NCBI GenBank assembly: GCA_000092065.1
Contig: CP000581.1
Length of the DNA: 64,000 nt
Reading direction: 5' to 3' (one strand)
DNA from: Ostreococcus lucimarinus
Taxonomy: Eukaryota
Numbering within the stretch: the first letter of the stretch is position 1; each line of letters begins with the position of its first letter. Of this stretch, positions 3,482 through 60,954 are shown piece after piece. Below the pieces are notes generated by a model that ran no database searches, had not been told where the DNA came from, and saw nothing but the letters and a program-made list of their open reading frames with translations. The position numbers were made by a program, and so were the translations under genes.

Positions 3482-3575
3482 CGATGTCAAAACTCGTTGT
3501 AAATTACACACTAAGCGCGCGCGCTGTAAAAATGAAAGATATAAGTAAGTAGTAGTAGGCAAAGAGGGAGAGAGA

Positions 3576-23088: not shown

Positions 23089-26000
23089 CTAGCGGCCAAT
23101 CGGCGGTGGGCCCGCGGAAGGGGATCCGCCGGTATCGAGACCGAATTTCTTTGCCTGTTGGTTTACCGCGATGGTGACGTACGCGCCGATGAAATCGTTG
23201 ATGATGAACACGGACAAACCAGCGAACATGCCGATGAAGAGCAGACAGCAACCGACGATGAGAATCTTTCGAAGCATCTCTGGGCCCAGAATTAAAGAAA
23301 GCGATCCGAGCGGGTCCATGAGACTCAATCTCGCGCGCACCGGTTCTCTGAGTTCCGGATCTCGGTTCGGCGCATCGCGCCCGGCGCCGACGGGCCTGAC
23401 TTCAGCTTTGCGCACCGGCATGAGTGAGAGCATTATCTCCACCTCGCCTTGGCACTCGTTGGGCTTGCTCGGGTGATACAACTTCAACCACCTTCCTTCA
23501 GCCGCGCCGTCGAAGATGTTGAAAGTCGATAAACTGTCTGTGAAAGACGACTTAAACTCCACAGTCGCCTCGGTGGCCAACTCTCCATCAGGCGAGTTGT
23601 CCACCGCGCGCATGAGCTGTCGGCACATGCCCGTCAATGGAATCGTAACTTCCCCGATGGCATCGTTAGCGCTGAACAAATCTCTGTCGTACGCTGAGAT
23701 TCGCAAAGCCCCTCGAGCGATCGGAAGCTCAAACCTGAAGATGTTTCTAAAGTTGAAGCTGCCTCGACCATCCGTGGCGAACCAGTGCGTGTCGGTTTCT
23801 TGCGCCTCCGTGAAGCGAGTTTGCGTCCTATCGAGACCGACGAGGGTAAGCTTGAAGAACAAGTCATTTTTACCACCGACATCTTTGTTCATGACTTTTC
23901 GCGCGCCAAACGTGACGCATCGAAGTTCAACTTCCATCACCGGAGGCGGCTGCAACGGAAACGCCGGCGGAGGCGCGTCGTGACCTTCATGGATCTCAAC
24001 GAACATTTCTAAAAAGCCTTGTGGAGTGTCGCTGTCCGGAAGAAGTAACGGTCTCATCTCCAGTGGTGGCGTTTCAGAGAGGTTTTGCACCCACACTGGG
24101 GAGAAGAATCTGTCCTCGATGTCGATGGAGCACGTGCCCAATAATATATCCTTGCCTCTCTTTTCCCAATCGTACACGTTGATGTCTACGATGGAGTCAC
24201 CAGGGACGTCGGTCTGAAACTGGAAAACCTTGTAAAACCACGGCGAAAGAGTTCGTTCGACTCGATCTTCACGCTTACCGTAACGCTTCTTCAAACCACG
24301 TTGATTGACGATGAGATACGGATCGCACAAACCCGTCGGGTCGGACGTTCGAAGGTCTCTTCCGCGAATCACGTACACGCGAACCGTGACCTCCGTTGGT
24401 GCGGAAGCCAAATCGCCTCCTCCCGCAATTCGCTGTACTTCAAGAAACTCATCTTTACCCATGGTTGCGAAATCTTCCTCTGGTTCCCATCTCGCCATCT
24501 CTTCCTCGTGAATTCTATCCAGGCGCCTCTTCTTTTCCTTCTTGTTCAGCGCCTCCTTGAGAGCTCTTTTTCGGTTGACCTTATTTTCGAGAAGGTTTTC
24601 TGCGACAAAACTCGTGTCTTCCCGAAGTGGTACGCTTCGGATGGCAACCTTGACGACACCCGCGAGTTCTTTTTCAGATGTGTTGTCCGCGAATCCTTTC
24701 GCATGGTACACTGGGATGGACATGAACTGCAAGGGCCGCAGCTCGTCCTCGAGTAAGCCGCCTGCGAGGATCATTCGGCCCTCCATCCAAATCGGGAGCT
24801 TACCGGTGCCGTCGTCAAAGGTGATGGCGTCTTGTTGCTCCGCATCGGAGTCACTCGATTCTTCTTCCACCGACTCCGCGTCATCGTTGTCGTCCTTCGA
24901 CGTACTACTGCCGAGGTCGTCGCTATCGCTCTCGCTGCTGGCGTACGACTTTTCCGTCTCCGTCCCGCTAATTTCAGTCTTGTCCGAGTCTGACTCGGAA
25001 GAATCTGGACGCTCGACTTCTTTGATAGACATCAGCTGATTTTTAGACTTGCGTCTTTCCTTACTGAAATCTTCAAGCGGAATGTATTTCCGCTTGCCAT
25101 CCATTGAGCGAATCATGTGATAACCCGCGGCAGACTCCGGCTCCGTCAATTTTTTTCCCTGTTTTTGCCCTTTTTGCATAGACTTCGAACTCGCCAATCG
25201 CGACATCTTACTCTTAGAGCTACCCAGCATGCTTGTCGACTGGTTTATAGCTGTACTCGACCGTTTCATGGATCCACTTTTATTCTTAAAAGTAACACTC
25301 GCGCCGAATAACTCAGAGTCGTCGTCGGCGTCGCTGAACTCGTTTGTGACTGTGTCAGAGTCGTCCTCGTACAAAGTAGTGTTCGTACCGAAAGTTCTCT
25401 CCGACTCGGATACAGTCGCGGACATCTCCGCCATGAGCTTCTCGCGAATCTCGTCTGGAGTCAATTTACGAATCTTGACTGACTTCAGTTTACTCACGAA
25501 TTCAGCCTCTTCGACTTTTTCGGAATCGCGGACACGAAGTGCATGCTCGGCAGTCGCGATGATGTGCGTCGAACTGTTCCGACCATCCATCACACGGATG
25601 GATAAACTGAGACGGACTTTATTGAGCCTCGTCATCATTCCGCTCAGTCTGAGAATCTCTCCCTTGAAGTTTGCGTTCGGTCCGTTTGGATACATTTGCT
25701 GACGTGTTCGTGCGAGATGAGCGCGCGAACCAAAGTACAAGGGCGTCACACCGTTGAGCTCAAACTCGACGCAAGGACGATGGACTGGAGTACCTCTGTA
25801 AGGTGTCAACCCGCGCACACCCAACACAACGAGCTCTACTGCGATAGCGGTTGCGCCGTAATGGTCCTCGAGCGGACGTACTGCAGAGTTGAGCCTCATC
25901 AACGCGAGCGCCTTGAAGGAAGAGTCTGCGACACCGGCGTACGCTGCGATGCCTTCCTTGGGCATCGGTAACAACTCATAAAACATGAGAATGTAACCGC

Positions 26001-28767
26001 CCGCGTCTATTGGTGAGACGCTCAAACCTTTCTTTGGATTCAACTGGCGCATCGGATACCATTCGGGTTCAGCCGACAACGCACCGACTTCGTAATTTGC
26101 AATGTCATCGTATCTATCTGGGAATTCAGAATCAAGACTGAACTTTGAATAGAAGGACAAAATAGATGACGCGATGACGCTAAAGTTATCGTCGCCACGC
26201 CGCTCGGCTTCCGCAGCGGCAGGATGAATCAAAGGCAACGAGAGCACAGATAACGGATCGTTGTCCATCATGAGCAATCCTTCGTCTCTGTCAAAAACCA
26301 TGACATTCAAGGATGGCGCCGCCCACCATGCAATTCCTTCAAACTCTTGCCCCACACCGCCGCCGCCGCCTTTACCGACGAACTTCTCTTTCTTCTTTTG
26401 AGGTTTTGTCGACGTTTCAGCCATCTCCACATCGTAATCGCGCGAATCAAAACTGGCATCGCTCGAGTTGCCATCATTTGCCGCGTTAATTTCCGCCATT
26501 CGAGACGGATCAAGTAGGACATCCTCGCTATCCTCATCCGAGTCGTCGCCGTCGGTGACAAGCGTACCATCAGGCAGACGTTTCTTGTCCTTAACTACGA
26601 GTGGAAGATCCACTTGAACGAATAACTCTCGGAACCAAGAAGGTGACGTCGTTGAATTCACCACATTCGTCTCCGCGATGTTGCGACCGACTCGGAGCAC
26701 CGCAAAAGGGTCGCTTGAACCGTGAGCGTCAGCGGCCGGTAAATCGCGCGCTTGATACAACTCCATCCGAAGCATGAATGGACGAGTTGGAAGAGGTTCA
26801 ACGAACTCTGATTCTAAATTTGCAGCGAGGCGCTCGCCACGAAGCTCTGCTTTGCGCTCCAAATCCCCGCGCCGATCGTCCATGGCTGCTTCAGCGTCGG
26901 AAGCCACGCTCTTGACGTCATCTTCGTCGACGTATGCTTCACCCGCCGCGTGCTTTCCAGCGCTTGATCCTCGAATCATGAGACGCAGAAGTACCTGCCC
27001 AATCGGTTTGACGTTTTCGGCGCGGCGACTATGAAACCACTTGTGATTGCTGAGTGCATCCGCTCTGAGAGGAAACCACCCTTGCACTTTCCAGCCGTAC
27101 GGGAATTCCGCGTTCGTCGGCGGCGCCCTCGGTCGCAACGTTTCGTTCACCGGCACGAGCTCGGTGACTGGGATGCGACAATAACCCACACGTCGAGAGC
27201 CGTTTCCACTCAAAATATTAACGTTCACAAAGACGTCTGGCGACCCTGTACCCGCGAGTGGTCCCTCGAAAGGCGTTGGAATCTTGACCAACAACGGCGC
27301 CAAGTTACACTGAACGTTGGCGTAGCACTCGGCGCTGAGCGATCCACCTTCGCCTCGAAGTATAACTGAGGGCGATGACGTGGATTCAAGCCCCATGCGG
27401 ACGTCGACGGATAACATTTTGCCCGTAGCTTTCGTTTGGAAGAGTTCCACGTTCATGATTTGCGAGTGAAGAAAACAACGCCACTCCTTGCCCATCTTCG
27501 CCAACACCGGAGGAATCGATTTCTTCGCCCGCGCGTGCTTGTTTCTTCGGTTCTCTGGCTCTAATGTGAACGATATCAACGTCCGACCGCGGTATGCTGC
27601 ACCGTCCACGTATCCCGCGTTCATTCTCTTGGCTAACTTTGACATGCGACTAAAAAACGCAACTTCCATGCCACGTAAACCGCCGTAGAAGCAGTACCAT
27701 TTCGGTTTTTCGTACGCCTTCGGGCGATCTAAGATATCCTTCAAACTAATTGCCGTCGAAGCGACGTGATCATCCGCGTCCATGACGTCTCTATCCATGA
27801 CGCTCATACGCAAGGGCGGCATCGCATCGATACCTTGCTCGCCGCCCGGCACTAAAAGTCGCAAGACAATCTCCTGGTTCCAATCCGGGTTCTTACTCGT
27901 GATCACTCGCGTCTTCGCCTCTTTCGCCGACCCACAGGATATCTTGAGATACGCATCCAAGCCTCCCGCGCCGAACCTATCCATCCTCGGAAACTCTCTA
28001 CCGCTGTACACGCACGCCTTTAGAATGTAAGCTTGCACATTCTTGCGAGTCATTTCCGCCTCGTCATGTTGCAACTTCTCCAACGCTTTTTTCTCAGCGC
28101 GTTTAACGCGCTTTGCGCGAGCTTTGGCGGTTTCAAACTGTCCGACTTCGACCATTTCCTCCTCGCCGTCGCTAAATTTCTCATCCAAGTGCAGCGGCGG
28201 AGAGTCGCCGTCTCGCAGCACCGTCACGCACAGGCACAACTCCCCTTGACTCCCCGATCGCCTCCCCGAGAAATCCGTCAACGTGTACCACTCGTTCCAA
28301 ATCTCGTGCGTCTTCGACAAGTACACCGCGGCGAGATTTATGTCCACGCTCCCGATCACCATGTCCTTGCCGATTCTCGACTTATCGCACACGTTCACCA
28401 CCACGTTACACGCCTCCAGCTCATCCTCTGCCACCTCGACTCGATCAAAATAAAACAACTGATTCCACAGCGGCGACGCCGTCTCCTTCTCGATCACCGT
28501 CCTTCGCTTCTGCGGTTCGAACCCCGCGCGCTGCAGCTTCACCTTGCCCACCACGTTCGGCAACCGATCGGCGTGCACCGTCTGCGTCTTCAGCCTAAAG
28601 CTCATCAGCGTCTGCAGCAGGCTGAACGCTTGTATCGCCTGCAGGTTTTTCGCCTCCACCAGGCGCACGGCGACGCTGTACGCGCCCGCGGGCGTCGTGT
28701 GTCGCGCGGGCGCTTGCAATTCCTGTCCATCGACGACCGACGCTTTGTCGCCCCACAGCCACCCCAT
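23089..28767 (-). CDS. Ferlin-family multi-C2-domain protein (dysferlin/otoferlin-like) with a C-terminal transmembrane anchor; 1892 aa in a single exon.
   Basis: Several C2-type blocks, for example VRVYVIRGRDLRTSDPTGLCDPYLIVN and ISAYDRDLFSANDAIGEVTIPL. The C-terminal ferlin signature VGAGRDAPNRDPELREPVRARLSLMDP is followed by the TM segment ILIVGCCLLFIGMFAGLSVFII. Confidence 0.75.
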   Translation of the reverse strand: MGWLWGDKASVVDGQELQAPARHTTPAGAYSVAVRLVEAKNLQAIQAFSLLQTLMSFRLKTQTVHADRLPNVVGKVKLQRAGFEPQKRRTVIEKETASPLWNQLFYFDRVEVAEDELEACNVVVNVCDKSRIGKDMVIGSVDINLAAVYLSKTHEIWNEWYTLTDFSGRRSGSQGELCLCVTVLRDGDSPPLHLDEKFSDGEEEMVEVGQFETAKARAKRVKRAEKKALEKLQHDEAEMTRKNVQAYILKACVYSGREFPRMDRFGAGGLDAYLKISCGSAKEAKTRVITSKNPDWNQEIVLRLLVPGGEQGIDAMPPLRMSVMDRDVMDADDHVASTAISLKDILDRPKAYEKPKWYCFYGGLRGMEVAFFSRMSKLAKRMNAGYVDGAAYRGRTLISFTLEPENRRNKHARAKKSIPPVLAKMGKEWRCFLHSQIMNVELFQTKATGKMLSVDVRMGLESTSSPSVILRGEGGSLSAECYANVQCNLAPLLVKIPTPFEGPLAGTGSPDVFVNVNILSGNGSRRVGYCRIPVTELVPVNETLRPRAPPTNAEFPYGWKVQGWFPLRADALSNHKWFHSRRAENVKPIGQVLLRLMIRGSSAGKHAAGEAYVDEDDVKSVASDAEAAMDDRRGDLERKAELRGERLAANLESEFVEPLPTRPFMLRMELYQARDLPAADAHGSSDPFAVLRVGRNIAETNVVNSTTSPSWFRELFVQVDLPLVVKDKKRLPDGTLVTDGDDSDEDSEDVLLDPSRMAEINAANDGNSSDASFDSRDYDVEMAETSTKPQKKKEKFVGKGGGGGVGQEFEGIAWWAAPSLNVMVFDRDEGLLMMDNDPLSVLSLPLIHPAAAEAERRGDDNFSVIASSILSFYSKFSLDSEFPDRYDDIANYEVGALSAEPEWYPMRQLNPKKGLSVSPIDAGGYILMFYELLPMPKEGIAAYAGVADSSFKALALMRLNSAVRPLEDHYGATAIAVELVVLGVRGLTPYRGTPVHRPCVEFELNGVTPLYFGSRAHLARTRQQMYPNGPNANFKGEILRLSGMMTRLNKVRLSLSIRVMDGRNSSTHIIATAEHALRVRDSEKVEEAEFVSKLKSVKIRKLTPDEIREKLMAEMSATVSESERTFGTNTTLYEDDSDTVTNEFSDADDDSELFGASVTFKNKSGSMKRSSTAINQSTSMLGSSKSKMSRLASSKSMQKGQKQGKKLTEPESAAGYHMIRSMDGKRKYIPLEDFSKERRKSKNQLMSIKEVERPDSSESDSDKTEISGTETEKSYASSESDSDDLGSSTSKDDNDDAESVEEESSDSDAEQQDAITFDDGTGKLPIWMEGRMILAGGLLEDELRPLQFMSIPVYHAKGFADNTSEKELAGVVKVAIRSVPLREDTSFVAENLLENKVNRKRALKEALNKKEKKRRLDRIHEEEMARWEPEEDFATMGKDEFLEVQRIAGGGDLASAPTEVTVRVYVIRGRDLRTSDPTGLCDPYLIVNQRGLKKRYGKREDRVERTLSPWFYKVFQFQTDVPGDSIVDINVYDWEKRGKDILLGTCSIDIEDRFFSPVWVQNLSETPPLEMRPLLLPDSDTPQGFLEMFVEIHEGHDAPPPAFPLQPPPVMEVELRCVTFGARKVMNKDVGGKNDLFFKLTLVGLDRTQTRFTEAQETDTHWFATDGRGSFNFRNIFRFELPIARGALRISAYDRDLFSANDAIGEVTIPLTGMCRQLMRAVDNSPDGELATEATVEFKSSFTDSLSTFNIFDGAAEGRWLKLYHPSKPNECQGEVEIMLSLMPVRKAEVRPVGAGRDAPNRDPELREPVRARLSLMDPLGSLSLILGPEMLRKILIVGCCLLFIGMFAGLSVFIINDFIGAYVTIAVNQQAKKFGLDTGGSPSAGPPPIGR

Positions 28768-39408: not shown

Positions 39409-40605
39409 TTGTTAGTACGTGTCTCTCACGCGCTTCAAGGCGGCGTTCGCGCGTTGATGACGGATTTGCGCACGTTTGAGAATTCTGAAACGGACTCGAG
39501 AGCCTCGGCGCCAGCGGCGCGCGGCGGCGAAGACAACGCACTCGACGCGCCCACGCGCGAGCCGCTCGCGTCCGCGCAGGCGTGTCAGCGCGCGAATCAT
39601 AACGATACCGCGACGACGCGCGTTGACCTCGCGTTGGACGAGGGCGCGGCCGAAGTGTTGAAGGTGGGCGAGCTGCGTCTCGGGTGGGCCTCGGCGCCGG
39701 GATCGACGACGCGCGCGTGCTTGAAACACGCCATCACGTGTACGTGCGATTTCAGCGCTATCGATCAGACCTTAACGTGTGCAAACATGCTCGCGCGCGA
39801 AAGAGCGGAGAACGATGAGATGTGGGGGCGAGTTACGCGTGAGGACTATAACTCAAGACTGCGCGCGGTCCAACACGTGCGCTACAGATTGGTCGAAGGC
39901 ATCGTTCGAAGCGGCATCATGAATGATTTTTCCGTCGTCACAGCGTCGCTGGCGGTTAGATACATGGACTATTTCTTGACCACGAGCGGATACCAGATCG
40001 GAAACGATTCATTTTGGCTGTATCAGTTGCTGTCGGCGGCCTGTCTGTTCATCGCTTGCAAATTCGAAGAACCCGCGAACAATCTTCGAAATAGTGTGGG
40101 TACGAGATTGCAGCTGTCGAACGATATCTCGTTTGACCTCGCATCGCTGAAGAAGATGGAAGCCATCGTCCTTCGGGAGTTGAAGTGGAAAGTCTCGCGT
40201 ATAACGCCGCTTTGTTTCGTCCCGATCTTCTTTCGGTTAGTCGACTGCAAAGGGTTAGTTTGGCCGCAGCGAGACGGTTTCGATATCGACATGAGAATCG
40301 CCATCTTGAGAGAAGCCGAGCTTCTGACGACGACGGTGTTGTACGATGCAAGTGCACTGTGTTACTTCGAAAGCAGCGTGATCGCGAAGGCCATCATTTG
40401 CATTTTACTGGCAAAATTTTGTGACGACATCGGCAGCGATGAAATTGTGCCCACGGTAACGATGAACATCTTGAAGAAAGTGTACGCGGACGGCGACGCC
40501 GATTACTTTTCCTACGTGATTCGTCGGGTGACAGAATGCGTGCGCATTATCGAAGGAATGAAGGCGACTCTGAAACAGTACGCAGAGTCGATGGAACATT
40601 TGTGA
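39409..40605 (+). CDS. Cyclin (cyclin-box N-terminal domain).
   Basis: Cyclin-box pattern RLRAVQHVRYRLVEGIVRSGIMNDFSVVTASLAVRYMDYFL...LYQLLSAACLFIACKFEEP. Lower GC than neighbouring genes. Confidence 0.6.
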   Translation: MLVRVSHALQGGVRALMTDLRTFENSETDSRASAPAARGGEDNALDAPTREPLASAQACQRANHNDTATTRVDLALDEGAAEVLKVGELRLGWASAPGSTTRACLKHAITCTCDFSAIDQTLTCANMLARERAENDEMWGRVTREDYNSRLRAVQHVRYRLVEGIVRSGIMNDFSVVTASLAVRYMDYFLTTSGYQIGNDSFWLYQLLSAACLFIACKFEEPANNLRNSVGTRLQLSNDISFDLASLKKMEAIVLRELKWKVSRITPLCFVPIFFRLVDCKGLVWPQRDGFDIDMRIAILREAELLTTTVLYDASALCYFESSVIAKAIICILLAKFCDDIGSDEIVPTVTMNILKKVYADGDADYFSYVIRRVTECVRIIEGMKATLKQYAESMEHL

Positions 40606-40696: not shown

Positions 40697-43661
40697 TTAC
40701 TTTCGAGAACCGCGCGTTCTACTACTTTCTTCCAACCTTGAATTCTTTAACTTTTCCAACATGATACACGCGCGTTCTCCTATCCAACCGCATATAGTTT
40801 TGAGCTTCCAGTCTTCGCCCTCGGGACCGAGCGTGATTAAAAGAAGCGATATGAAGACGAGCGCCCACACGAGAGAGCTCGCGATTGTCGTGGTGATCAA
40901 AAACGCGAATTTCGCGAAAAATTGTAGGGTACATAGCCAAAGGATCGAACCACTTATAACAGTCGTCACCGCTGAGGCGACGATCGACACGCCCATCGTT
41001 GCGAGCGCGTATTGCGTTCGATCGCCTCTCGACTTCATCGCCGCCGGCGCCTCGACGTAAGCGTTTCCTAAATGCACGCCGTAATCCACGCTGAGGCCGA
41101 TGAGAATGACCGCCGCAATAGTTTCGCGAATCCCTAAACTCCAGTGCATGACTCGATAAACGCCGATCCCAAGCACGCTTACCACGACGCCGGCGACGCT
41201 CACTGAACAAATGGACGCGACCAACACGTTCCCCGTGCTGATGCATAAGACGACAAACGCCATACAAAAGCAGATGCTAATTCCTTGAAATGTATTATCC
41301 ACCAACGTCTCTTGCATTCGCATCCATGTCCAAGCGACGTATGCAGTTTGTGACCCGCTCTTTACGCCGTCTGGGGCGACTTCATTCAGATTTCGGATCA
41401 AACCTTCGAATTCGTCGTGCACCCCTCGAGAGACGCTCGCTGGCGCTTGATGCATGAGGGTCGATTTCGTGGATACTTTCACAAAAAATAATTCGGGTTC
41501 ACCAGAGTTTTTGTTTGGTCGAAATCCAATTTGATGCGCGTATCGTGATCCCACCGACGACGAGCGAAACTCCCAAAGCTCGTCGAGGAAGCTGTCTCGA
41601 GGAACTGGAAAGTTTTCTTCGCCCACGTAATCGCGAAACGCCTCCATGAAACAATCCACGTCGCGCGTGAGTCGACCATCTCTACATCCTCTCGAAGAGC
41701 AGCTCGCGTGACGAAGCGTGAGACAGCTATTCAAAATGTGTACCTGCGATACCTCTGCGGAAACGTCGAAAGATTCGTCCAATTGCAATCTGCCCCTCGA
41801 CGCCAAATCCCATTGCGAAACGCTCGACATGTCCACGCCGAGCAAGCCCCAGAACACGTCCACAGCCACAACCAAGTCGTCGTCTGAACGCAAAAAGGCA
41901 GTCTGGTCGCGATCACTAAACTGCTGTACGAGGTGTTTCGATGAGTACCAGCGCTCGATTTTGGAGGGTGTCTCAAGACGCACGCAAAATCGTGCCGCGA
42001 CGATGAACATAGCCGTGAACGCACCGATCGTAACGAATCGTACGAATGGCCGCCTGAGCGTTTGATAGAACGGCCCGTGGAAGAATCGTTCAACACGACC
42101 GAGTTCTTTTGATTCGACGATCTCACTTTCGTTGATTTCTTTGCTCGCCGGCAAGAATTGGCGCCACGTCATGTTCTCGAAGTATCGTGCAAAAAGCACG
42201 AGAGCGGCTGGGAACAAGAGCACGTTTACGACGAACAATACAGCGATCATCGTCGCCGAAACTATCCCAAAAGCCGCCAGTGGCGTTATCGGTGACCACG
42301 CTGTGGCTAAAAACGCTCCTGTGGTTGTGAAAGACGTCACGAAGATGGCTTTCGACGCCCTGTCGGTGGAGTACATCAGGCGGTCGAAGAGAGCATCGCC
42401 GACTTCCGCTTCCGTCGCGCTCTGACGAAACGCATCAAAGTACACGAAAACATCATCGGCACCAATGCCGAGACAAATGAATATACTGAGCGCTTGAATG
42501 TTTCCGACGTATGGGATGCGAAAAATGAAACGGTAGATGAGCAACGCGATCGGGAAGGACACGAGAATCTCAAACATGCCGCACGTTGCGATGAACAGAG
42601 ATCTCGTGTTGAACGCCATGTACAGCCACACCGCGGCGATCGAGGCAATGGCCCACGCCAAGTCGCTCGCAATCACTCGGGCTGAGTCGCGCTCACGCAA
42701 GAATTCAGCATCCCAACGGGTGATCAAAGTAGCCCCCTTCGCGCGTTCGCGCGTTGACGTCATGTAAGGAGAGCTGACGAAGCTCCCTCGCATGCCGTAT
42801 CGACGAAACAGCGCGGTCTCGATGGGGTCAAGAAACGAAGCGAGCATCGCCTCTTGTTCATCCGGTCTGTCACTCGAACTCACGAATCCACGAAACGGTG
42901 TCCCAACGGGATACTTGGCGCGCGTGATTCCGACAGTCGCCGCGGTCGAGTCGAAATCGCCTAGAAAATATCCAAACGCGCTTAAATTGGTCGCGAATAC
43001 GTCCCGCACAACGGCGTCGACGTCGTCGACCATCGTTCCATCTTGATCGAAGAAATACGTCAGCGGCGAGAGATACGGCACACATCCGCGCGCGATGCCG
43101 AGCTCATCGTACTCGATTTGACAAAAATCTTCGTACCTGGCGAGCGCGATGGCTTCCACGTCTCGCATCGCCAGCAAGTTTTCTCTCGTAAACACACTCT
43201 TTCCGCGCACCGAGCTTTCCCACTGAAACATAAACGTCCCGCGTGCATTTTCTTCCGACCTCTCGCGCGTCTGGTGCGCCGTCGCCGCGCTTCCATTCGA
43301 CGCGTACCTGCGTTCGCGCCGCCGACGCGCGTTTCGTCAGTCTCGCCTCGCCTCGACGACGCCGACCGCCGCGCCTCGACCCCCCTCATCTCCCTCGTTC
43401 GACCCCCTCCCGCTCCGTCCTCGATCACGCGATCTCGTCTCGTCGCGCGCACCCGTCCAGCGTCTTCATCGCCATCCGCGCCGCGTCCGCGACGCTCGTG
43501 ATCCCATCCCTCGCGATGACCCACTCGCGCTCGCTCGGCGCTTGAAACTCCATCGCGCCGCCCAGGTACGACGCGAGCGCGCACGCCGTCGTCGCGATCG
43601 CGACGCACGACGCGCACGCGATCGGGCGTTCGTGCGCCGTCCTCGCGCATCGTCGCAGCAT
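40697..43661 (-). CDS. Patched/Dispatched-family RND-type membrane protein with a sterol-sensing domain. Two exons, about 43661..43453 and about 43307..40697.
   Basis: SSD motifs include SIFICLGIGADDVFVYFDAF, two TM bundles and two large loops. The main ORF lacks TM1, which lies in an upstream exon (MLRRCARTAHERPIACASCVAIATTACALASYLGG...KTLDG). Donor GG|GTGCGCGCGACG, branch GAGACTGACGAAACG and acceptor GCGAACGCAG|G join the two in phase. Confidence 0.65.
43308..43452 (-). other. Putative intron of the Patched-like gene (about 145 nt).
   Basis: Same donor, branch and acceptor grammar as the other introns in the window, and the phase is compatible. Exact boundaries are plus or minus a few nt. 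Confidence 0.5.
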
Positions 43662-43864
43662 CGCCGTCGCGCGCGCCGCTGTATCGAGCACCCAATCGCT
43701 CAATCCACGCGAATCGTCGCCCCGAGAACGCGAACCGTCACCGCCTCGATCGCCGCGATCGACCTCGCCGCGTCGCCGACGACGACGAGATTCAAACCAT
43801 CGCGCGGACCGCGGCGCGACGACGACGACGCGGACGACGACGCGCGATCGCGACGATCGACGCG

Positions 43865-45754
43865 ATGGCGACGATGGCGACCCGCGACGCGCGCGCGACG
43901 GCGCGACCGACGCGCGACGCGATGCTCTGGACGATCGAAGAGCTCGCGAGCGCGGGCGTCGACGCGACGACGCTGCGAAACCTGCTGCCGGTGGGACTCG
44001 CGGGCGAGGGCGCGCGGGCGGCGCGCGCGCGGAAGCGCGTGCGACATTTTTTTCTGCTGAGCGCGTCGATCGCGGCGATCGAAGGGGCGGAGGGAGAGGA
44101 GACGGAGAAGAGTCTGGAGGCGCATCGAGACGCGATGGCGCGCGCGAGAGACGCGTGCTTTCAGGAGGACGACGGCGACGAGGAGGATTTGATCGGCGAG
44201 GATACGGAGGCGTTTCGGGCGTACGTGAAGGCGGCGGAACGAGCGATCGAGGTGCTGGGGATGCGGGAGGCGTGCGAAGGGCTCGATGAGCGCCGTTCGG
44301 CGCGCGACGAGACGCCGCGAGACGCGGTGCGACGGGTGGTCGAGGAGTGGAAGGACGCTTTGCTCGGCGTCCACGGTCGGGACGTGGACGAGCACTTGGA
44401 TCGCATCGAGGACGCGTGGACGCGCAAGGCTGCGGATCGTTATCACAGATTGTGCGAGGTTGAGGAGTGGGACGAGCCGTCGCGCGCGTTGGTGAAAAAG
44501 GCGCTCGAGCTCTTGCGCGCCGAGCTTTGCGGGAAAGCGACGACGTTGACGACGGTGCAGGAGCACTTGGCGAACTCGTATTACGTGCCTTCGCGCGCAA
44601 AGCCAGGGTTCACGCTGGGTAAGCGTGATGATGGCGTGCGCGAGTGGGTTGACGTCGGCGCGCGTGGCGTGAAGCGCCGAGCCGAGACGAACGCGGACGC
44701 TTTCGTCTCGTCGCCATCGACCAAGCGAGTTCATTCAGAAGAAACATCTCCGGCCAAACCTCGTTCGTCTCCGGGACGATTAGGCGCCTTGCTGTCGAAG
44801 ACTATTTCGTGGGTGCGCAAATCGGTGGACGCGCCAGCGTTCATCAAATCACCCTTCGGCAAATCACCGCTCGGCAAGTCATCGCGGATCACGGCGTCGC
44901 AAACCATCGACGACGTAGAAGAAAGACGTACAGACGAAGTAGAAACTCTTGAAGACGACACGCCCCCCAGCGAGCACGAATCAGAAGAAGAAATAATGCC
45001 GACGCAAGTGCCTACGGGCTCGTATACTGACGAAGATGACGAAGACGAAGACGAAGATGAAGACAAAGACAAAGACCCGGAGCCATCTCCGACGCAAGTG
45101 CATACGGGCTCGTATACTGACGAAGATGACGAAGACGACGACGAAGATGAAGATGAAGACCCGGAGCCATCTCCGGCGCCGACGGAGCCGTCTCCGGCGC
45201 CGACGCAGACAATACAACCGGCTCCGCTCAAACGGCAAGGAAAAGTGTATCCGAAGGCACAACGACTGGTGTCGGTGAGAGCAGCACACGCGCGCTCACC
45301 TTTAACCGGCTCCGACGACGAGTACGACGAAATCGAAATCGAGGCGACGCCTGGCAATTACCTCGTGCCCCGCGTCAATCGACTCCAGCCAGTGAAGACC
45401 AGTGTCAAGCAATCCCCAACTCGTAAGAGAAAATACGAGAGACAAACAACAAGACGCGCGCCTGGACGCCCGAAGAACTGGACGCCCGAGGAAGAGACCG
45501 CCCTGATCGAGGGCGTGGAAAAGTTTGGCAGTGGCAAGTGGAAAACGATTTTAGCAGACGACGCGCGCGGTAAGAACGTTTTCGCCGCCAACGCCCGGAC
45601 AAACGTCGATTTGGCGAAAAAATGGTACCATCTACGCCCATCTCATTTGAGCAACATGTGGCGACAGCACGAGCAAGATCAAGAAATAGTGGCACGCCAA
45701 GAGAAACCTAAGTTGGATTACATTATCGACGCAATCCTAGAGGGCAGTCATTGA
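43865..45754 (+). CDS. Myb/SANT (telobox-type, TRF-like) DNA-binding protein with an acidic internal tandem repeat.
   Basis: C-terminal domain KNWTPEEETALIEGVEKFGSGKWKTILADDARGKNVFAANARTNVDLAKKWYHL resembles the telomere-repeat-binding Myb (VDLKDKW type). The central region is acidic. Confidence 0.6.
   Translation: MATMATRDARATARPTRDAMLWTIEELASAGVDATTLRNLLPVGLAGEGARAARARKRVRHFFLLSASIAAIEGAEGEETEKSLEAHRDAMARARDACFQEDDGDEEDLIGEDTEAFRAYVKAAERAIEVLGMREACEGLDERRSARDETPRDAVRRVVEEWKDALLGVHGRDVDEHLDRIEDAWTRKAADRYHRLCEVEEWDEPSRALVKKALELLRAELCGKATTLTTVQEHLANSYYVPSRAKPGFTLGKRDDGVREWVDVGARGVKRRAETNADAFVSSPSTKRVHSEETSPAKPRSSPGRLGALLSKTISWVRKSVDAPAFIKSPFGKSPLGKSSRITASQTIDDVEERRTDEVETLEDDTPPSEHESEEEIMPTQVPTGSYTDEDDEDEDEDEDKDKDPEPSPTQVHTGSYTDEDDEDDDEDEDEDPEPSPAPTEPSPAPTQTIQPAPLKRQGKVYPKAQRLVSVRAAHARSPLTGSDDEYDEIEIEATPGNYLVPRVNRLQPVKTSVKQSPTRKRKYERQTTRRAPGRPKNWTPEEETALIEGVEKFGSGKWKTILADDARGKNVFAANARTNVDLAKKWYHLRPSHLSNMWRQHEQDQEIVARQEKPKLDYIIDAILEGSH
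44998..45180. repeat. Tandem duplication of about 90 bp inside the Myb gene.
   Basis: Two near-identical units encode PTQVPTGSYTDEDDEDEDEDEDKDKDPEPS and PTQVHTGSYTDEDDEDDDEDEDEDPEPS. Confidence 0.8.
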
Positions 45755-52845: not shown

Positions 52846-55800
52846 TCAGTTGTTCTTGGACGTCACGCCCGGATAACCGCGCCAGACCTTGCCGATATCC
52901 GGGAACCATCCCGAGGCGGCGGGGCGAAGCGCGGGATGGGTGTAGATTTCGCCACCGAAATCTGTCGGCGGCGCCGCAGTGGCTTCGCTGAGAGGGACGG
53001 CCCAAGAGCTCGCGCTGCCGAATTCGGCGCGGAACTTTCTGTAGACCTTGAAGAGGTAATAGGGGACGGTGGCGTACAAAACGGCGCCTTGAATGTACGC
53101 CTGTTTGCTGAATAGCACGCAGGACAAGAACGTCTGGGCGACGACGAGAGACAGGATGACGAGCTGAGTAAACGTGAACCATACCGAACCGTTTGATTCG
53201 TATCCTCGCTCGTACACGTACAAGACGTGGTAACGCCAGATGACGAAGTTGGTGATGTAAAACAAGGCGGCGGCGAGTGGAATGAGCGGTGCGATGCAAA
53301 CGAATGTCAAACCAATGACCATGATGAGCATAAAGACGCCGGTTTCGCGACCCATGCGAACGGCTCGTGGAGAGTACAGACGAGTCTTGTCTCGCGACGT
53401 TCGCGCGCACGAGCCGCGTTTTTCGCACCAGAAAATATCAGCCGCCAGACAGAATGATCCCGGGTGGGGGAGCAACAGGCGCTGCACGGGGAGGTAGATT
53501 GCGCGGAAAACGATGAAAAGCAAGAAGAAATTGCTGCTCAGCGGCAAGACGCGACCAAATTGTAACTGTACCTCGTTCAACGAAACGTTGCTCGAGCTAA
53601 GCGTCGTCGTGAAGAGACTTAACGCGCCGCCAAAGATACCTCCAAGCAATACGTTCAACGCCCCCCACGCCCAATAGAAACGTAGAAATCGACGATCTGT
53701 AGCGGCTAACGATACATGAACGTTTTGTCTCTGCACCAAATACATCATGTAGAAGGAGATGACAAAAACTTCCCAGAGCGTAAGGATAATCGGTGGGAGG
53801 ACGCCCGAGATTATCGCGGCGTAAACCTTGGCATCATCCGAGCAATACCAGTCCAAAGCTGCCCCGCTATTGATAACATCATCTCCTTCGCGCACCTGAC
53901 ACACACTGGTCACCGCTGTCGCGAACATACCGGTCGGGAAGATCATCAAAGCTATGATGAAGGGCCAGATAGCGAGCGCTCGGGCACGGTTATCTGTCGA
54001 ATTGTGTAGAAGCGTCGGCCAATTGACGTCATCCGGACCGGGTGCGGGTAGAGCGCGGTATACTCTGTGCGACGCGCGCGAAATAACACACTGCGCTGCC
54101 GTACTCGCGGAGACCTGGTTTTCAAAGACTGCAAAGGCGCAAGGTCCCGGGGACCCTTCCCAAGTCGTCTTGCGCACGCAGATGATTGCCTCATCAATTG
54201 CTTCGAGCTGCGCTTCCAAAACCGCAACCTGCTCTGACAACGCGAGCTTACGCAAATTTTTCGGAGGCCTAAGCACATCGGCGAAAGCTTTTTTGAATTC
54301 TTTCCAGTTGTGGCCCAATTGCAATGTTCCTTTTTCAACCTCGCAAAGTCTCGTCCCAAATTTGTACGTCAACGCCTTCGGCGACTGCGTTTCCGGTATC
54401 ATGCCCTCGCGCGCCATTAACATCCTAATTCTCGTTATCATATTCTTACATTCATCACGGCTGTCCAAAAGCGCATCCGCTGGACGGTGATCAAAGATGG
54501 GTATTAAGCCTCTGAACTCATCGCCGTAAATATACTCGAGCGTCGCCTCAACTTCTCGCAAGCCGCGTACTCTCACCTCTTCGCCATTTTCGCCCATGGC
54601 TCGAACGAATGGGATATCGGTGATTAAAACCGTGTAGCTGGACGCCCAGACACTCACGATTTGATTCGTGTTCGTATCAAACGCGTTGACGGTGCGTATA
54701 CTGTCAACATCGGGCACCGCCGACGGAGCTTCTTGTAGATAATCGCCCACGCACAAGGACGCCCGCGTCACCGGAGACGTCGCGCTGAGAGGAGACTCTG
54801 GATCGTCGAATAAAGATGTCAGATTTCTCTTCGGCTCTTCGCCCTCCATCGTTTGTCGCTCTGGAACTTCTAGTGGTCGTCCATCAGTGCGAGGATTAGG
54901 TTTGGATCCCGTTCCTTTAAACTGGTGCGTAACGTCCAGGCCGACCCACCAATCGTGCGCGATCGATGTTTCGGCGCGAATTTGGACACCTTCACTGCCA
55001 CGGCCGCCGCAGCGAACGGCCTCGCCCGCGTCTTCGAGAGACTTTACTCTCGCGAGCGCTTTCTTCACAGCTGGAGTGAGCGCAATATTCTCCACAGGCA
55101 AGTCCTCCATCGTAGGCATTCGATTGTGTTTACCACGTCGCGGCGATTTCGTAGGGCTTACGAGCCAGGCCAAATTGTCAGCACTCCCTCGTTGATTGAT
55201 GACACCTTCCATGAGCTGCTTCGTGCCGATATCTTCGCGAGAAGTCACGCGGTGCATACCAGACGCCTGCGCCGCCTCGTGCTCTCGAAGCGTTTGACTA
55301 ACGGAAGCCGGCATCGCTCCCAACGATCCAAACGAACCCATCCGGAGCTTTCGTCGTTCTCTTCGTTTAGCAACTGCTGGCGGCTCTGAAACAGGCGGAT
55401 TGACATTCAGATCCAGGTCGTCCGAGTTTTCACCCGAAGTAAACGAAGTAAAGTGCCGTGATTCCGTCACCGGTCCCGGCTCTGTTTTGTTTTCAGGTTG
55501 TGAAGAAGCTTGACTCGTCGACGCCCGGCCGAGCGTCGGTGTTACAGGTACCGAAGGTCTCCGGGCCATTTGGCGATCGTCTGCGTCGGCAGATGCGGGC
55601 GACTTGAACAAAGTTCCAGCTCCCTTCAAGCCTTGCGCGACGTTGCCAACCTGCGGAGGCGTGAGTCGCCGCGCTGTCGGCCCACCAAAAGGCGATAGAT
55701 GAGGGGTACTCGCGAAAGGTGATATCTTCACCGTCGATGACGCTAGCGTATCGCCATATGCATGCGTGGGCGATGGCTCAGTGTCGAGCTCGTGCAAACT

Positions 55801-56685
55801 CTGACGCCGCTCTTTATCTTCAAGCCTCTTGTCTACGAGCCGTGTCGACGCCGCGCGAGTGAGCAACGACTTTGCCTTGTGTGAAGTTACGTCCACAGCG
55901 CGCTTCAACAAGCCTCTTTGCTCATCTTCATACTCGTCCATCGCCGCCAGCGCATCGCATGCCGCGTTAATGTCGTCTGAATTGGCACTTTTCATCTTGC
56001 GCAATTCATCGTCGTCGATTTCAGCTCCCGCCTGCGTTCCTTGCACGAGCAACTGCTCTATGAAGTTCGACGGTTGGTGCACCACTCGCCACAGATTGGT
56101 GTCGCCGCGAGTGGTTAAATAAAGTGTTCTAAGTACCACAAACGTCGCACTGTGCTGCTTCAGAAGCCAAGTCGTGTATAAGACCATCAACCACATCCCC
56201 ACAGTGTGCAACCAAAGCACGCCTTGCTTACCTGGTATGTTTGCCACCGTTGTTAAGATCAACCCGCCTGGCACTTCCGCAGTCGTGTTCACTTTCGCGA
56301 CAATATACTGTGCGTGTTGGCGCACCATATCGTCCCCGTTCACGTGAATAGGCAACAAAATCATCATTGAAAAAATCGACAACGGCACGAATAATTGTAA
56401 CCCGAACTGACACACGCGTAAAAACGCAAACGCATCCAGCCCCGCCGTCTGGATCAGCGTCTTATCGTCCACGCGCAAAATGTGCGGAATCCAACCAAAG
56501 TAGTATCGCATCACACGCTTAAACACGCCGTCTTTTGTCGTACCATCGCGCTTCCGCGAGTGAAACGGCGGCGGCGGCTTCGTCAAATTTCGCAGTCGCA
56601 ACCGTCCGAAATAAATAGGCATCACGTGTCGCATGCGTCCGAAGAGAAGCAACCCCAAGAACGCGATTGTGGCGTAAATGCCCAA
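52846..56685 (-). CDS. CSC1/OSCA/TMEM63-family calcium-permeable stress-gated cation channel (RSN1_TM, cytosolic PHM7 domain, RSN1_7TM) with a large low-complexity insertion.
   Basis: N-terminal TM plus YYFGWIPHILRVDDKTLIQTAGLDAFAFLRVCQFGLQLF, typical of DUF221 proteins. The C-terminal 7TM block contains FLRFYWAWGALNVLLGG. A roughly 400-aa Ser/Pro/Thr-rich insertion lies between the domains. Confidence 0.7.
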   Translation of the reverse strand: MGIYATIAFLGLLLFGRMRHVMPIYFGRLRLRNLTKPPPPFHSRKRDGTTKDGVFKRVMRYYFGWIPHILRVDDKTLIQTAGLDAFAFLRVCQFGLQLFVPLSIFSMMILLPIHVNGDDMVRQHAQYIVAKVNTTAEVPGGLILTTVANIPGKQGVLWLHTVGMWLMVLYTTWLLKQHSATFVVLRTLYLTTRGDTNLWRVVHQPSNFIEQLLVQGTQAGAEIDDDELRKMKSANSDDINAACDALAAMDEYEDEQRGLLKRAVDVTSHKAKSLLTRAASTRLVDKRLEDKERRQSLHELDTEPSPTHAYGDTLASSTVKISPFASTPHLSPFGGPTARRLTPPQVGNVAQGLKGAGTLFKSPASADADDRQMARRPSVPVTPTLGRASTSQASSQPENKTEPGPVTESRHFTSFTSGENSDDLDLNVNPPVSEPPAVAKRRERRKLRMGSFGSLGAMPASVSQTLREHEAAQASGMHRVTSREDIGTKQLMEGVINQRGSADNLAWLVSPTKSPRRGKHNRMPTMEDLPVENIALTPAVKKALARVKSLEDAGEAVRCGGRGSEGVQIRAETSIAHDWWVGLDVTHQFKGTGSKPNPRTDGRPLEVPERQTMEGEEPKRNLTSLFDDPESPLSATSPVTRASLCVGDYLQEAPSAVPDVDSIRTVNAFDTNTNQIVSVWASSYTVLITDIPFVRAMGENGEEVRVRGLREVEATLEYIYGDEFRGLIPIFDHRPADALLDSRDECKNMITRIRMLMAREGMIPETQSPKALTYKFGTRLCEVEKGTLQLGHNWKEFKKAFADVLRPPKNLRKLALSEQVAVLEAQLEAIDEAIICVRKTTWEGSPGPCAFAVFENQVSASTAAQCVISRASHRVYRALPAPGPDDVNWPTLLHNSTDNRARALAIWPFIIALMIFPTGMFATAVTSVCQVREGDDVINSGAALDWYCSDDAKVYAAIISGVLPPIILTLWEVFVISFYMMYLVQRQNVHVSLAATDRRFLRFYWAWGALNVLLGGIFGGALSLFTTTLSSSNVSLNEVQLQFGRVLPLSSNFFLLFIVFRAIYLPVQRLLLPHPGSFCLAADIFWCEKRGSCARTSRDKTRLYSPRAVRMGRETGVFMLIMVIGLTFVCIAPLIPLAAALFYITNFVIWRYHVLYVYERGYESNGSVWFTFTQLVILSLVVAQTFLSCVLFSKQAYIQGAVLYATVPYYLFKVYRKFRAEFGSASSWAVPLSEATAAPPTDFGGEIYTHPALRPAASGWFPDIGKVWRGYPGVTSKNN

Positions 56686-57177: not shown

Positions 57178-60100
57178 CTAAGCCTCGGTCAAAGATAACC
57201 GAGGTGCTATGTTCATGGATTGCAACTCTTGGAATAAGAGCTTGCACGCGTACGGGAGCTTTAACGTCGCGACTTCGGCCTCAGTTTTGCACAGCGTGCA
57301 CGCGTTCCTGCGGGTGATGTGGTGCTGGAATCCGAGCAAGCCGCACTTGGTGCAGACTTGCGCTTCGAATTGATCGGAAGAGATCATCAAACGCTCCAAA
57401 ATAAGTTGTGATGCGCCATAACCGATGAGGCAATCGCGTTCCATCTCGCCGAGGCGCAAACCACCGTCGCGGGCTCGACCTTCGGTGGGTTGGCGTGTGA
57501 GGACGACGCGAGGACCGCGCGCGCGAGCGTGCATCTTGTCCTGAACCATGTGTTTGAGCTTTTGATAGTACACTGGACCCATGAAAACGTTGACTTCAAG
57601 CGCTTCGCCGGTGATTCCACAGTGAAGCATGTCCTTGCCTTTGTAAGAGTACCCGGATTCAACCAAGGTTTGTTGAATGGCTTCAACCGTGTCTCCACCA
57701 AACGCGGTTCCGTCGTGGAAGCGGCCGCTCTCGAGTCCAGCCTTACCGCCGAGAAGTTCGATCATCTTTCCGACCGTCATACGTGACGGGAACCCGTGCG
57801 GGTTCATGATGAGGTCAGGAGTAATCCCACGTTCGCTGAACGGGAAATCTTCCTGATCGAGGATGATGCCGCAAACGCCTTTCTGGCCATGACGAGAAGA
57901 AAACTTATCACCAACTTCTGGTCGACGCGTCTGACGCACGAGCGTCTTGATATTGAATTGCCCTTCATCCGTCATTGTGAGTAAGACTTTATCAACAATC
58001 GCCGATTCACCTGCGGGACCTTTGTATGAAAGCGGATTCGAGCGATACATGGTGTCTGGCATCGCGTGCGGATTCGCCATCGGATCCCGAGTGTTCACCG
58101 GCGTTTGCTTGTTGACATAAATGTCACCAGGCTTGATGCGACCACCGACGGCGGCGATGCCATCATCATCTAATAAGTGATGTCGACTATTTTGGTTCGC
58201 GCGATGATCATCTTTGGGCCCGACGATTCGGTCCATGGTTCTATTGCTATACTTTTTCACCTGCGCAGAGTATTTGCGCAACACCGTGCACCGGCCAAAA
58301 CCTCGGTCAAGAGACGCGCGATTCATCACGATGGCGTCTTCGATGTCGTACCCACTATACGACATCACGGCAATTGTCGCATTTTGACCCGCACCGAGAC
58401 GATCATAGCCTATTAACTCTATGGTCTTTGTCTTGACGATTGGCTTTTGCGGGTATACGAGCAAGTACATCAACGTGTCCATTCGGTTTAATTGATTGAA
58501 CGCAATATTACCCATCGCTTGCTTACCCATGGCGCATTGATATGTATTTCGCGGTGACTGATTGTGATGAGGATACGGGATGATGCCAGCACAAACGCCA
58601 AGCAAAGTGAAAGGTTCAATCTCCAAGTGCGTCGTCTCGTCGTTCACCTCGTCTTCGTACAACGCAATGTACGAATTGTTCTCTTCATTCACGTCCAGGT
58701 ACTCGACTAATCCTTCGCGTAGGAAATCATTGAACGTACGATGACCATCTTTCAGCTCGTCGAGATGTTCTTGAGTCAGTAAAGGCTCACCACGCTCGAT
58801 GATGATGAGTGGTCGACACACTCGTCCACCGTCTGAAGAAATGTACACGCATCCATCCGCAGTGTACACAGAAACGAACTCACCAATTCGCCCCGCCCGT
58901 CGCAGCTTTCTAAACGCGTGCGAGAACGCTTCGGGTTGCGCGTGCACGCCGAGCAGGGAACCGTTCATCAAAACGTGCGCACCAGACGGCGAATGCATCT
59001 CACCGGCGTTTAACCACGTAAGCGGTTCTACACCGAGCGCGTGTGCTAAACGGCGAAGCGGCTCCTCCTCGTCATCCGTCGTGACGTGCGTCATCAGCGC
59101 CAAGTTTTTTACGAGCCCGCATGACTCTCCTTCGGGAGTGTCACTCGGGCAGAGCATCCCCCATTGACTCGGTTGTAACGCCCGCGGACCGGAAACCTTT
59201 CTGGTCTTTTCAAACTGAGACGTTATGCGCGTCATCATACCGAGCGCGCTGATGAAACTCAGTCGACTCAGCACTTGAGTCACGCCTTTTCGTTCCATTC
59301 TAAAACGCTTTACCGTCCAGTTACCGCTCGAAATTGCGTGTTCCAGGCCGTTACTCAGGGTGTCTTGACGAATGCACTTTAAGATGTCAAACTGCGTCGC
59401 ACGATTTGCTTTGGAAAGCACGGCGTCGGCTTGTCGCTTCAAATCAGCGTTCAAACGTTTGAAGCAATCTTCAAACAATAGGGCAATGAGCTGACCGGCG
59501 AGTTCAAGACGCTTGTTACCATAGTAGTCCTTGTCATCGATCTGCGTCGGGTCGAGCATCGCGTTCAGAATTCTGCGAACCATGATGGAAATGTAAGCGC
59601 ACTTTTGCCTAAAGTCATACGACGTCACGGGCACGTGTGCGAGTACGACGCCGGCAAGAATGTCGCGCGCTTCATCTACGCGCGATCTACCGAAGTTTCG
59701 CACACCCGGTCTATTCGTCATGTGCGTCTTCACCACGCGCACCTTGTTCGCGCAATACTCTAGCGCCTGCTGCGTAGTGAAAACTCCAGCTGCTTGACAC
59801 TCCTGTAAAGTCGGCCCCAAAAGCATCGCGTACGCTGGTTCCGATCCGATCATTTGCACCGCTTCTTGATCGCTCTCCAACCCCATTGCCTTGAGAACGA
59901 TCATGATTGGAATGTCGTCCGCAAACGTGTTGTGTCGAAGGTAGAACTTTCCGTGCTTGACTACGATGTTTGTCTTACTCTTCCGTTCGTGCGTCGACGA
60001 AGTCACCGATGCCCCAATCTCTCCTTTGGCGTCGACTTCTATGATAATTCTATTCTTGCTCAACTGCTCTTGAATCAAAATCACTTTCTCCACGCCCTTG

Positions 60101-60696
60101 ACGATGAAGTATCCACCCGGATCCAACGGACACTCCCCCAACCTCGCCAATTCGTCCTCATTTTTTCCGGTCAACACACACCGCGAGCTTCGCAGCATCA
60201 AAGGAATCCGTCCAATAACGACGCCACCCACACCATTCTTCGCCTGACGCGTCACGATCTCCTTCCCACGCGTGTACTCCACATCCACCGTAATCGGCGC
60301 CGCGTACGTCATGTCTCGCAATCGACACTGCTGCGGCGTTATTTCCTCCACCACGTAATCTTCCTCCACGCTCGGTCGTCCAACGTGTATATTCGTGTAC
60401 TTCAGGTAAAAGTTTGGATCACTATCGCACGTCACTCGCTCGTTCGCCTTGGCGTGAATGATTTTTTTGATCTCCTCGTTCACCAGGTAGTTGAACGAGT
60501 CGATGTGCTGCCTGACCAGCCCTCTCACCTTGAGAAACGCCGGCAGGAGCTCGTATTTATCCTCCAACGTCGCGATCGGAGCGGTGATCTTCGAGGGGTC
60601 GCGCGTGAGGCAGTCCATGGCGCTCGCATCGCTCGCATCCGGCGCTCGCGCGCTCGATTTGCGCGGCTTTTTCGCGCCGCCGCCGGTATTCGTCAT
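57178..60696 (-). CDS. POLR3B: DNA-directed RNA polymerase III second-largest subunit (RPC2). Start taken at Met 81 of ORF 57178..60936; Met 107 (60618) is an alternative.
   Basis: Near-identical blocks to POLR3B: [74 protein letters not shown], and the C-terminal zinc ribbon CTKCGLLG...CTLC. Confidence 0.85.
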
Positions 60697-60954
60697 GCCG
60701 GCGGCGATGTCGTCGATCGTCGCGTCGCTCGCGCGCTGTGACGGCGCGCGACTGCGCACGGCGCGGCGAACGGTCGATCGATCGCGTTCGGTGCGCCGCG
60801 AAGCGCGTCGGGCGTCGCGGCCGACGATCGAGGCGCTGCGAGGCGCGGTATGACGCGCCGCCCCAGAGAGCACAAGCCTCGAGCGGGACGAAGGCGGACG
60901 CGAGGCGAGGCGAACGGCGCTTCGAGATGCGAGCAAAGACGCGCGAGGACGTGA

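Follow-up and report, generated by a model that had tools for sequence, protein, structure and literature searches.

A two-exon picoalgal gene for a predicted membrane protein of the Dispatched branch

This report concerns a gene on the minus strand, at 40697..43661, of a 64,000-nucleotide (nt) stretch of Ostreococcus lucimarinus DNA (contig CP000581.1; 'the window' below means this whole stretch). We are confident of two things taken together: that the gene has two exons, the first of which encodes the first transmembrane segment (TM1), and that its 939-amino-acid (aa) product belongs to the Dispatched (DISP) branch of the RND superfamily. The host is an Ostreococcus-type (Mamiellales) marine green picoalga, in which this is an ordinary two-exon nuclear gene. 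Orthologs in O. tauri are annotated already but uncharacterised. The new elements here are a correct gene model and a family assignment, which fit a known family and overturn no current understanding.

Gene model

The gene structure below is predicted from comparison with relatives.

43453..43661, minus strand: exon 1, 209 nt, encoding residues 1-69 and two bases of codon 70
43557..43625, minus strand: TM1 coding sequence (PIACASCVAIATTACALASYLGG, residues 13-35; translation checked; hydropathy peak 1.73; AlphaFold helix 13-33, pLDDT >90)
43308..43452, minus strand: intron, 145 nt, phase 2, with in-frame stops for both flanking frames
43447..43452, minus strand: donor GTGCGC at the intron 5′ end
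43336..43341, minus strand: branch-like ACTGAC, with 29 nt between it and CGCAG
ending at 43308, minus strand: acceptor CGCAG at the intron 3′ end
40697..43307, minus strand: exon 2, 2611 nt including the TAA stop at 40697..40699, encoding residues 70-939 and containing an 844-aa open reading frame (ORF)

The 844-aa ORF (40697..43231, minus strand) is present. As an earlier note on this DNA had claimed, it carries a sterol-sensing domain (SSD), with GIGADDVFVYFDAF at residues 350-363 of the spliced protein, and it begins within extracellular loop 1, that is, within extracellular domain 1 (ECD1). The same note had placed TM1 on a separate exon about 220 nt upstream. This too held up: the last base of exon 1, 43453, lies 222 nt before the ATG of the ORF, and three related loci, an intronless ortholog and the O. 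tauri model OUS42386.1 agree with it. Exon 1 encodes a short cytoplasmic N-terminus, TM1 and the beginning of ECD1, and the start codon at 43659..43661 is the first in-frame ATG of its frame. On the minus strand upstream of the ORF, this frame reads MLRRCARTAHERPIACASCVAIATTACALASYLGGAMEFQAPSEREWVIARDGITSVADAARMAMKTLDG and meets a stop soon after the GTGCGC at 43452, while the frame of the main ORF is open backwards until a stop inside ACTGACGAA. Joining 43453 to 43307, which removes the GTGCGCG...CGCAG intron that had been suggested, completes the split codon GG|G in phase, as foreseen, and leaves a coding sequence of 2820 nt without an internal stop. The resulting 939 aa replace the first estimate of about 920. 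Because homologs match without a break as far as the C-terminus, the model needs no second intron.

Two other minus-strand ORFs, of 391 aa (43425..44600) and 344 aa (43700..44734), lie in this region. Both are rich in Arg, Pro, Ser and Ala, run antisense to a Myb-domain gene, and look like artefacts of GC-rich frames. Exon 1 happens to fall in the 3′ end of the 391-aa ORF.

Architecture and family placement

The main domains and motifs of the encoded protein are as follows.

42179..42706, minus strand: SSD, TM2-TM6, residues 271-446 (Pfam PF02460 and PF12349; alignment to mouse DISP1; model helices)
42443..42469, minus strand: GIGADDVFV in TM4, within the SSD, with VTSFTT in TM5
41336..41980, minus strand: extracellular domain 2 (ECD2), residues 513-727, alpha+beta fold (model secondary structure; phmmer alignment to DISP1 ECD2)
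40829..41335, minus strand: second TM bundle, TM8-TM12, residues 728-896 (Pfam MMPL match at 652-804 of the ORF; DISP1 alignment; model)
41072..41098, minus strand: GLSVDYGVH in TM10, within the second TM bundle, with a TT pair in TM11

Three Pfam families match the ORF above their curated cut-offs: Patched SSD (9.2e-8), MMPL (3.1e-7) and Sterol-sensing (1.1e-6). They include the two named in advance as a check, PF02460 (32.4 bits; cut-off 23) and PF12349 (29.1 bits; cut-off 22.3). An AlphaFold2 model built with 36 homologs reached a mean pLDDT of 88.3 and a pTM of 0.82. It runs from the TM1 helix through an alpha+beta ECD1, TM2-6 (271-446), TM7 (490-512) and ECD2 to TM8-12 (728-896). This pseudo-symmetric 12-TM topology, typical of RND proteins, is obtained in the model only if exon 1 is included, and hydropathy agrees.

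Searches by sequence and by predicted structure clearly point to the Dispatched branch of the RND superfamily rather than to PTCH, NPC1 or bacterial RND proteins. In a sequence search of the PDB, mouse and human DISP1 matched with E-values of 2.9e-44 to 3e-39 across residues 284-901, from TM2 to TM12 and including ECD2. Tardigrade Disp (3e-35) and fly Disp (4e-26) followed, and then NPC1 (7e-10) and PTCH1 (~3e-7), both over TM segments only, and MmpL3 (3e-3). The corresponding bit scores were 154 for DISP1 versus 41 for NPC1 and 32 for PTCH1. Structure comparison gave the same ranking. The best eight Foldseek matches in the PDB are all Dispatched, led by 7rph (E 6.4e-34, TM-score 0.69/0.70, 20% identity), and outrank NPC1, NCR1, NPC1L1 and PTCH1 by about ten orders of magnitude. 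Named relatives in a large protein search were 'dispatched homolog 3-like' from Haliotis rufescens and 'dispatched homolog 1-like' from Mytilus.

The algal protein shares with metazoan Dispatched (DISP1 and Drosophila Disp; TCDB RND superfamily; PDB 7rph, 6xe6, 6tbu) a 12-TM RND fold, an SSD, two alpha+beta extracellular domains, GxxxDD in TM4 and GxxxD in TM10. Identity is only ~20%, and the algal protein is without the long disordered cytoplasmic tails and extra domains of the animal proteins. Its length had led to the suggestion of a 'minimal' RND transporter, which does not really fit: 939 aa is about the size of the ordered DISP1 core, with 926 modelled residues in 7rph.

The best named full-length relative is the DISP3/PTCHD2-like Haliotis rufescens protein (P0039), with 27% identity over 86% of the query (E 2e-72). 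DISP3 is associated with the handling of lipids and cholesterol and not with Hedgehog release. Unlike the algal protein, it is an animal protein with expression in neural tissue. It has been described as an SSD protein (PMC5278513).

The main competing assignment would make the protein a sterol transporter or receptor of the Patched or NPC1 type. Names favour it: the matching Pfam models are called Patched and Sterol-sensing, the best NCBIfam match is a Patched subfamily, far below threshold (51 bits; cut-off 1120), and among the RND/SSD proteins reported earlier from green algae, those of Chlamydomonas were called PTCH homologs (PMC9222137). PTCH1, NPC1/NCR1 and bacterial HpnN/MmpL do share the RND/SSD superfamily and overall architecture with the algal protein, but at much weaker levels (30-40 bits; Foldseek E 1e-23 to 1e-18). 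The extent of the DISP1 alignment, the all-Dispatched structural matches and the DISP3-like and DISP1-like relatives all speak against Patched or NPC1, and the protein is without the NPC1-type N-terminal domain. We therefore regard this assignment as very unlikely. Of the 'Patched/Dispatched-type' label first given to the protein, the RND/SSD and Dispatched parts are retained and the Patched part is dropped.

Two observations weigh against the Dispatched assignment itself. ECD1 of the algal protein does not align to DISP1 at the sequence level (phmmer), and no furin site (R-X-[KR]-R) occurs anywhere in the algal protein. DISP1 carries such a site (RERR) and a linker arm in its TM1-TM2 loop, both particular to Hedgehog handling, required for Hedgehog release and absent here. 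The PTCH/DISP/NPC1 group as a whole has been argued to be ancient and linked to bacterial HpnN (PMC2698682). Literature searches pairing Dispatched with Ostreococcus or algae found no relevant paper.

Evidence for the intron

A splice-signal pattern, GTG[CA]G[TC]...[AG]CTGAC...YAG, matches 11 sites in the window, where composition-preserving shuffles give 10.5 +/- 3.5, and several other GT/GC-AG pairs would keep the frame too. The case for the intron thus rests on comparison with relatives.

Three related Ostreococcus-type loci (the O. tauri-like L001, L002 and L003), at 60-68% identity, carry a counterpart of exon 1, then a gap with stops and then the main ORF, whose frame relative to the exon 1 homolog varies. 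The introns interrupt the same codon position. They measure 145 nt in the window and 133, 138 and 107 nt in the relatives (1, 1, 0 and 2 modulo 3), and excision restores the frame in all four sequences. In each of the four, counting from the first base of the codon for the R of REWV, a GTG[CA]G donor stands exactly 77 nt downstream; ACTGAC comes after the donor, and the first YAG lies 22-34 nt downstream of ACTGAC.

Other relatives have no interruption. The homologs P0010 (930 aa) and P0011 (954 aa), 53% identical, are single ORFs whose N-termini align with exon 1 (MRRYATLAHDRPW-TM1-EF..P..REWV...DAG) and continue directly into ...ER....GTF.FQWES. P0011 is a syntenic ortholog on a 43-kb contig (L004), with a Cyclin_N gene downstream and TM1 contiguous with the remainder of the 954-aa ORF. 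The N-terminus M(L)RR.A..AH.RP, TM1 and EF..P..REWV are conserved across relatives, with 53-68% identity between species for the exon 1 protein, and exon 1 appears as a separate ORF of 78-92 aa on hundreds of marine metagenome contigs. One population variant of this ORF (P0182) is identical at all 70 exon 1 residues and departs from the window just past the proposed donor. Furthermore, the annotation of the O. tauri model OUS42386.1 (P0092) uses the homologous junction, ...AMANE|YAGRG...GTFMFQWES. Sequence features expected of a spliceosomal intron are present: the boundaries are GT and AG, there is a branch site, removal restores the frame, and the position is conserved in some orthologs while others have no intron. 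Comparison of the DNA of the window and L001 was uninformative on exon against intron, with identities of 67%, 64% and 63%.

A rival reading takes the 844-aa ORF, with the ATG at 43231 as its start codon, for the whole gene and puts the upstream exon down to a chance ORF in GC-rich intergenic sequence. Prokaryote-style gene callers report just this ORF (P0001, with many cluster members), and the O. tauri model CEF96894.1 is likewise without TM1. Its start, however, is translated, non-conserved intron. A product of the ORF alone would begin within a beta-strand of ECD1 (model strand 88-101) and, without the signal-anchor, would have an odd number of TM segments and the wrong topology for the RND fold. 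Nor would chance account for an exon 1 protein that is conserved, and contiguous with the rest in the intronless syntenic relative. The ORF-only gene is thus scarcely credible.

Several results nonetheless count against the two-exon model or blur its details. The splice motif by itself is not above chance and is not evidence for an intron. Searches of metagenome contigs and of a protein collection gave no spliced transcript: a 28-mer across the spliced junction had 0 matches in JGI metagenome contigs, a search without a positive control for transcripts of the host there, and when residues 1-156 served as a protein query, every match was an unspliced exon 1 ORF or the start of an ORF. Looked up exactly, the 939-aa model has no entry in the protein collection either. 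Finally, the junction adjoins a variable, low-confidence linker (residues 76-81, pLDDT <50), so homology cannot fix the exact acceptor; use of an AG 18 or 48 nt farther downstream, for example, would preserve the frame as well. The predicted acceptor position follows the rule of the first AG after the branch, the CAG|GTACGCG conserved between the window and L001, and the O. tauri model.

An introner-type repeat was considered and rejected, as the window holds no second copy of the intron. In a more distant, Micromonas-like ortholog (P0012; L005 2500..3300, GC 66%), the called ORF starts just before ...PPRQEWVILED, and a TM1-like segment (HDRPCTVFTAVSSFVLIITAIVGAANLASF) lies upstream in another frame. 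The intron at this locus may therefore sit at a different position, between TM1 and REWV.

That the gene encodes a bacterial-type RND exporter (HAE3, HpnN or MMPL), through contamination or recent horizontal transfer, has a negligible probability: JGI labels some fragments 'predicted RND superfamily exporter protein', NCBIfam gives weak matches to HAE3, MMPL and HpnN, and Hausmann et al. noted a reciprocal-best-match relationship between HpnN and Disp (PMC2698682), but all family scores are 21-43 bits versus cut-offs of 352-875, on which membership was rejected, and the gene is interrupted by a spliceosomal intron, is flanked in conserved synteny by eukaryotic cyclin and Myb genes, and has its closest relatives among eukaryotes.

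Ion-site residues and proposed function

Mouse DISP1 coordinates three Na+ ions through D571 and D572 (TM4), D1049 (TM10), T610, S611, T613 and T614 (TM5), and T1087 and T1088 (TM11), and mutation of these residues blocks Hedgehog release (bioRxiv 10.1101/2020.09.05.284026). All nine are identical in the algal protein (D354, D355, D811, T394, S395, T397, T398, T851 and T852) in a phmmer alignment whose residue spacing was checked across gaps. Among the 36 homologs, they are invariant or at least 90% conserved. This conservation suggests cation-gradient-driven lipid extraction of the DISP/PTCH type, and the likely function is extraction or export of a sterol or lipid powered in this way. Na+ is a plausible coupling ion for a marine cell. 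Single-celled eukaryotes have no canonical Hedgehog pathway (PMC9222137), so the cargo cannot be canonical Hedgehog; it would be a sterol, another lipid or a lipid-anchored molecule. As a point against this functional reading, our confidence in ion coupling and substrate, which derive from conserved residues, is lower than in the gene model and family.

In the mechanism that we envisage, TM1 would serve as a signal-anchor and so set loop 1 on the outer side of the membrane. Na+ (or H+) would flow down its gradient through the Asp, Thr and Ser sites in TM4, TM5, TM10 and TM11, and this flux would drive motions of the two extracellular domains. Those motions could then draw the cargo, which may be a sterol, another lipid or a lipid-anchored molecule, out of the outer leaflet and set it free.

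A full set of DISP Na+-site residues in a green picoalga without Hedgehog fits the view that PTCH/DISP-type lipid transporters are older than Hedgehog signalling (PMC2698682, PMC9222137). A bolder proposal, which we consider improbable on balance, is that the Dispatched protein of these Hedgehog-less marine Mamiellales, with its intact three-site Na+ relay, retains the ancestral, pre-metazoan role of DISP. In that role, the Na+ gradient across the plasma membrane of a wall-less marine cell would power the export of a sterol or other lipid, or would free a lipid-anchored protein from the cell surface. If true, the alga would offer a simple unicellular model for how ion flux is coupled to lipid extraction in DISP-type RND proteins. 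The algal Dispatched is also a compact candidate for functional work.

Existing gene models

The O. tauri ortholog, 68% identical to the window protein, is represented by CEF96894.1/XP_022838363.1 ('Sterol-sensing domain'; P0091, 865 aa) and by OUS42386.1 (771 aa). In the O. tauri-like locus L001, the ortholog lies at 2193..5161. Both public O. tauri models look incomplete or defective. CEF96894.1 begins with the translated intron and skips 22 residues of ECD1; OUS42386.1 has the correct 5′ end, but diverges and ends after TM8. Prokaryote-style calls in metagenomes, which give the 844-aa ORF, likewise miss TM1. The family is widespread on Mamiellales-type metagenome contigs. The lineage of the window, which the 68% identity marks as an Ostreococcus type distinct from O. 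tauri, is abundant in Tara and other marine metagenomes. A correct model including TM1 is needed for studies of topology, localisation or expression. As a by-product, the analysis supplies such a complete model, while the widely used CEF96894.1 and the metagenome calls omit TM1.

Genomic neighbourhood

The window is eukaryotic, with a GC content of 51-70% and closely packed genes. The transporter gene has one convergent and one divergent neighbour.

39409..40605, plus strand: Cyclin_N-domain gene (Cyclin_N 4e-12), convergent, its stop 91 nt from the transporter stop
43865..45754, plus strand: Myb-domain gene, divergent, 629 aa, with a C-terminal Myb-like DNA-binding domain (Pfam 9.6e-8)

The order Myb, transporter, cyclin is kept in L001, and the cyclin neighbour is also found in L002 and the intronless L004. 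A 203-nt interval separates the transporter ATG at 43661 from that of the Myb gene, and this intergenic region is probably a bidirectional promoter. The Myb protein contains a duplicated acidic stretch (PTQV.TGSYTDEDDEDEDEDED...PEPSP, twice). Elsewhere in the window are three very long ORFs, all on the minus strand: 23089..28767 (1892 aa), 52846..56685 (1279 aa) and 57178..60936 (1252 aa).

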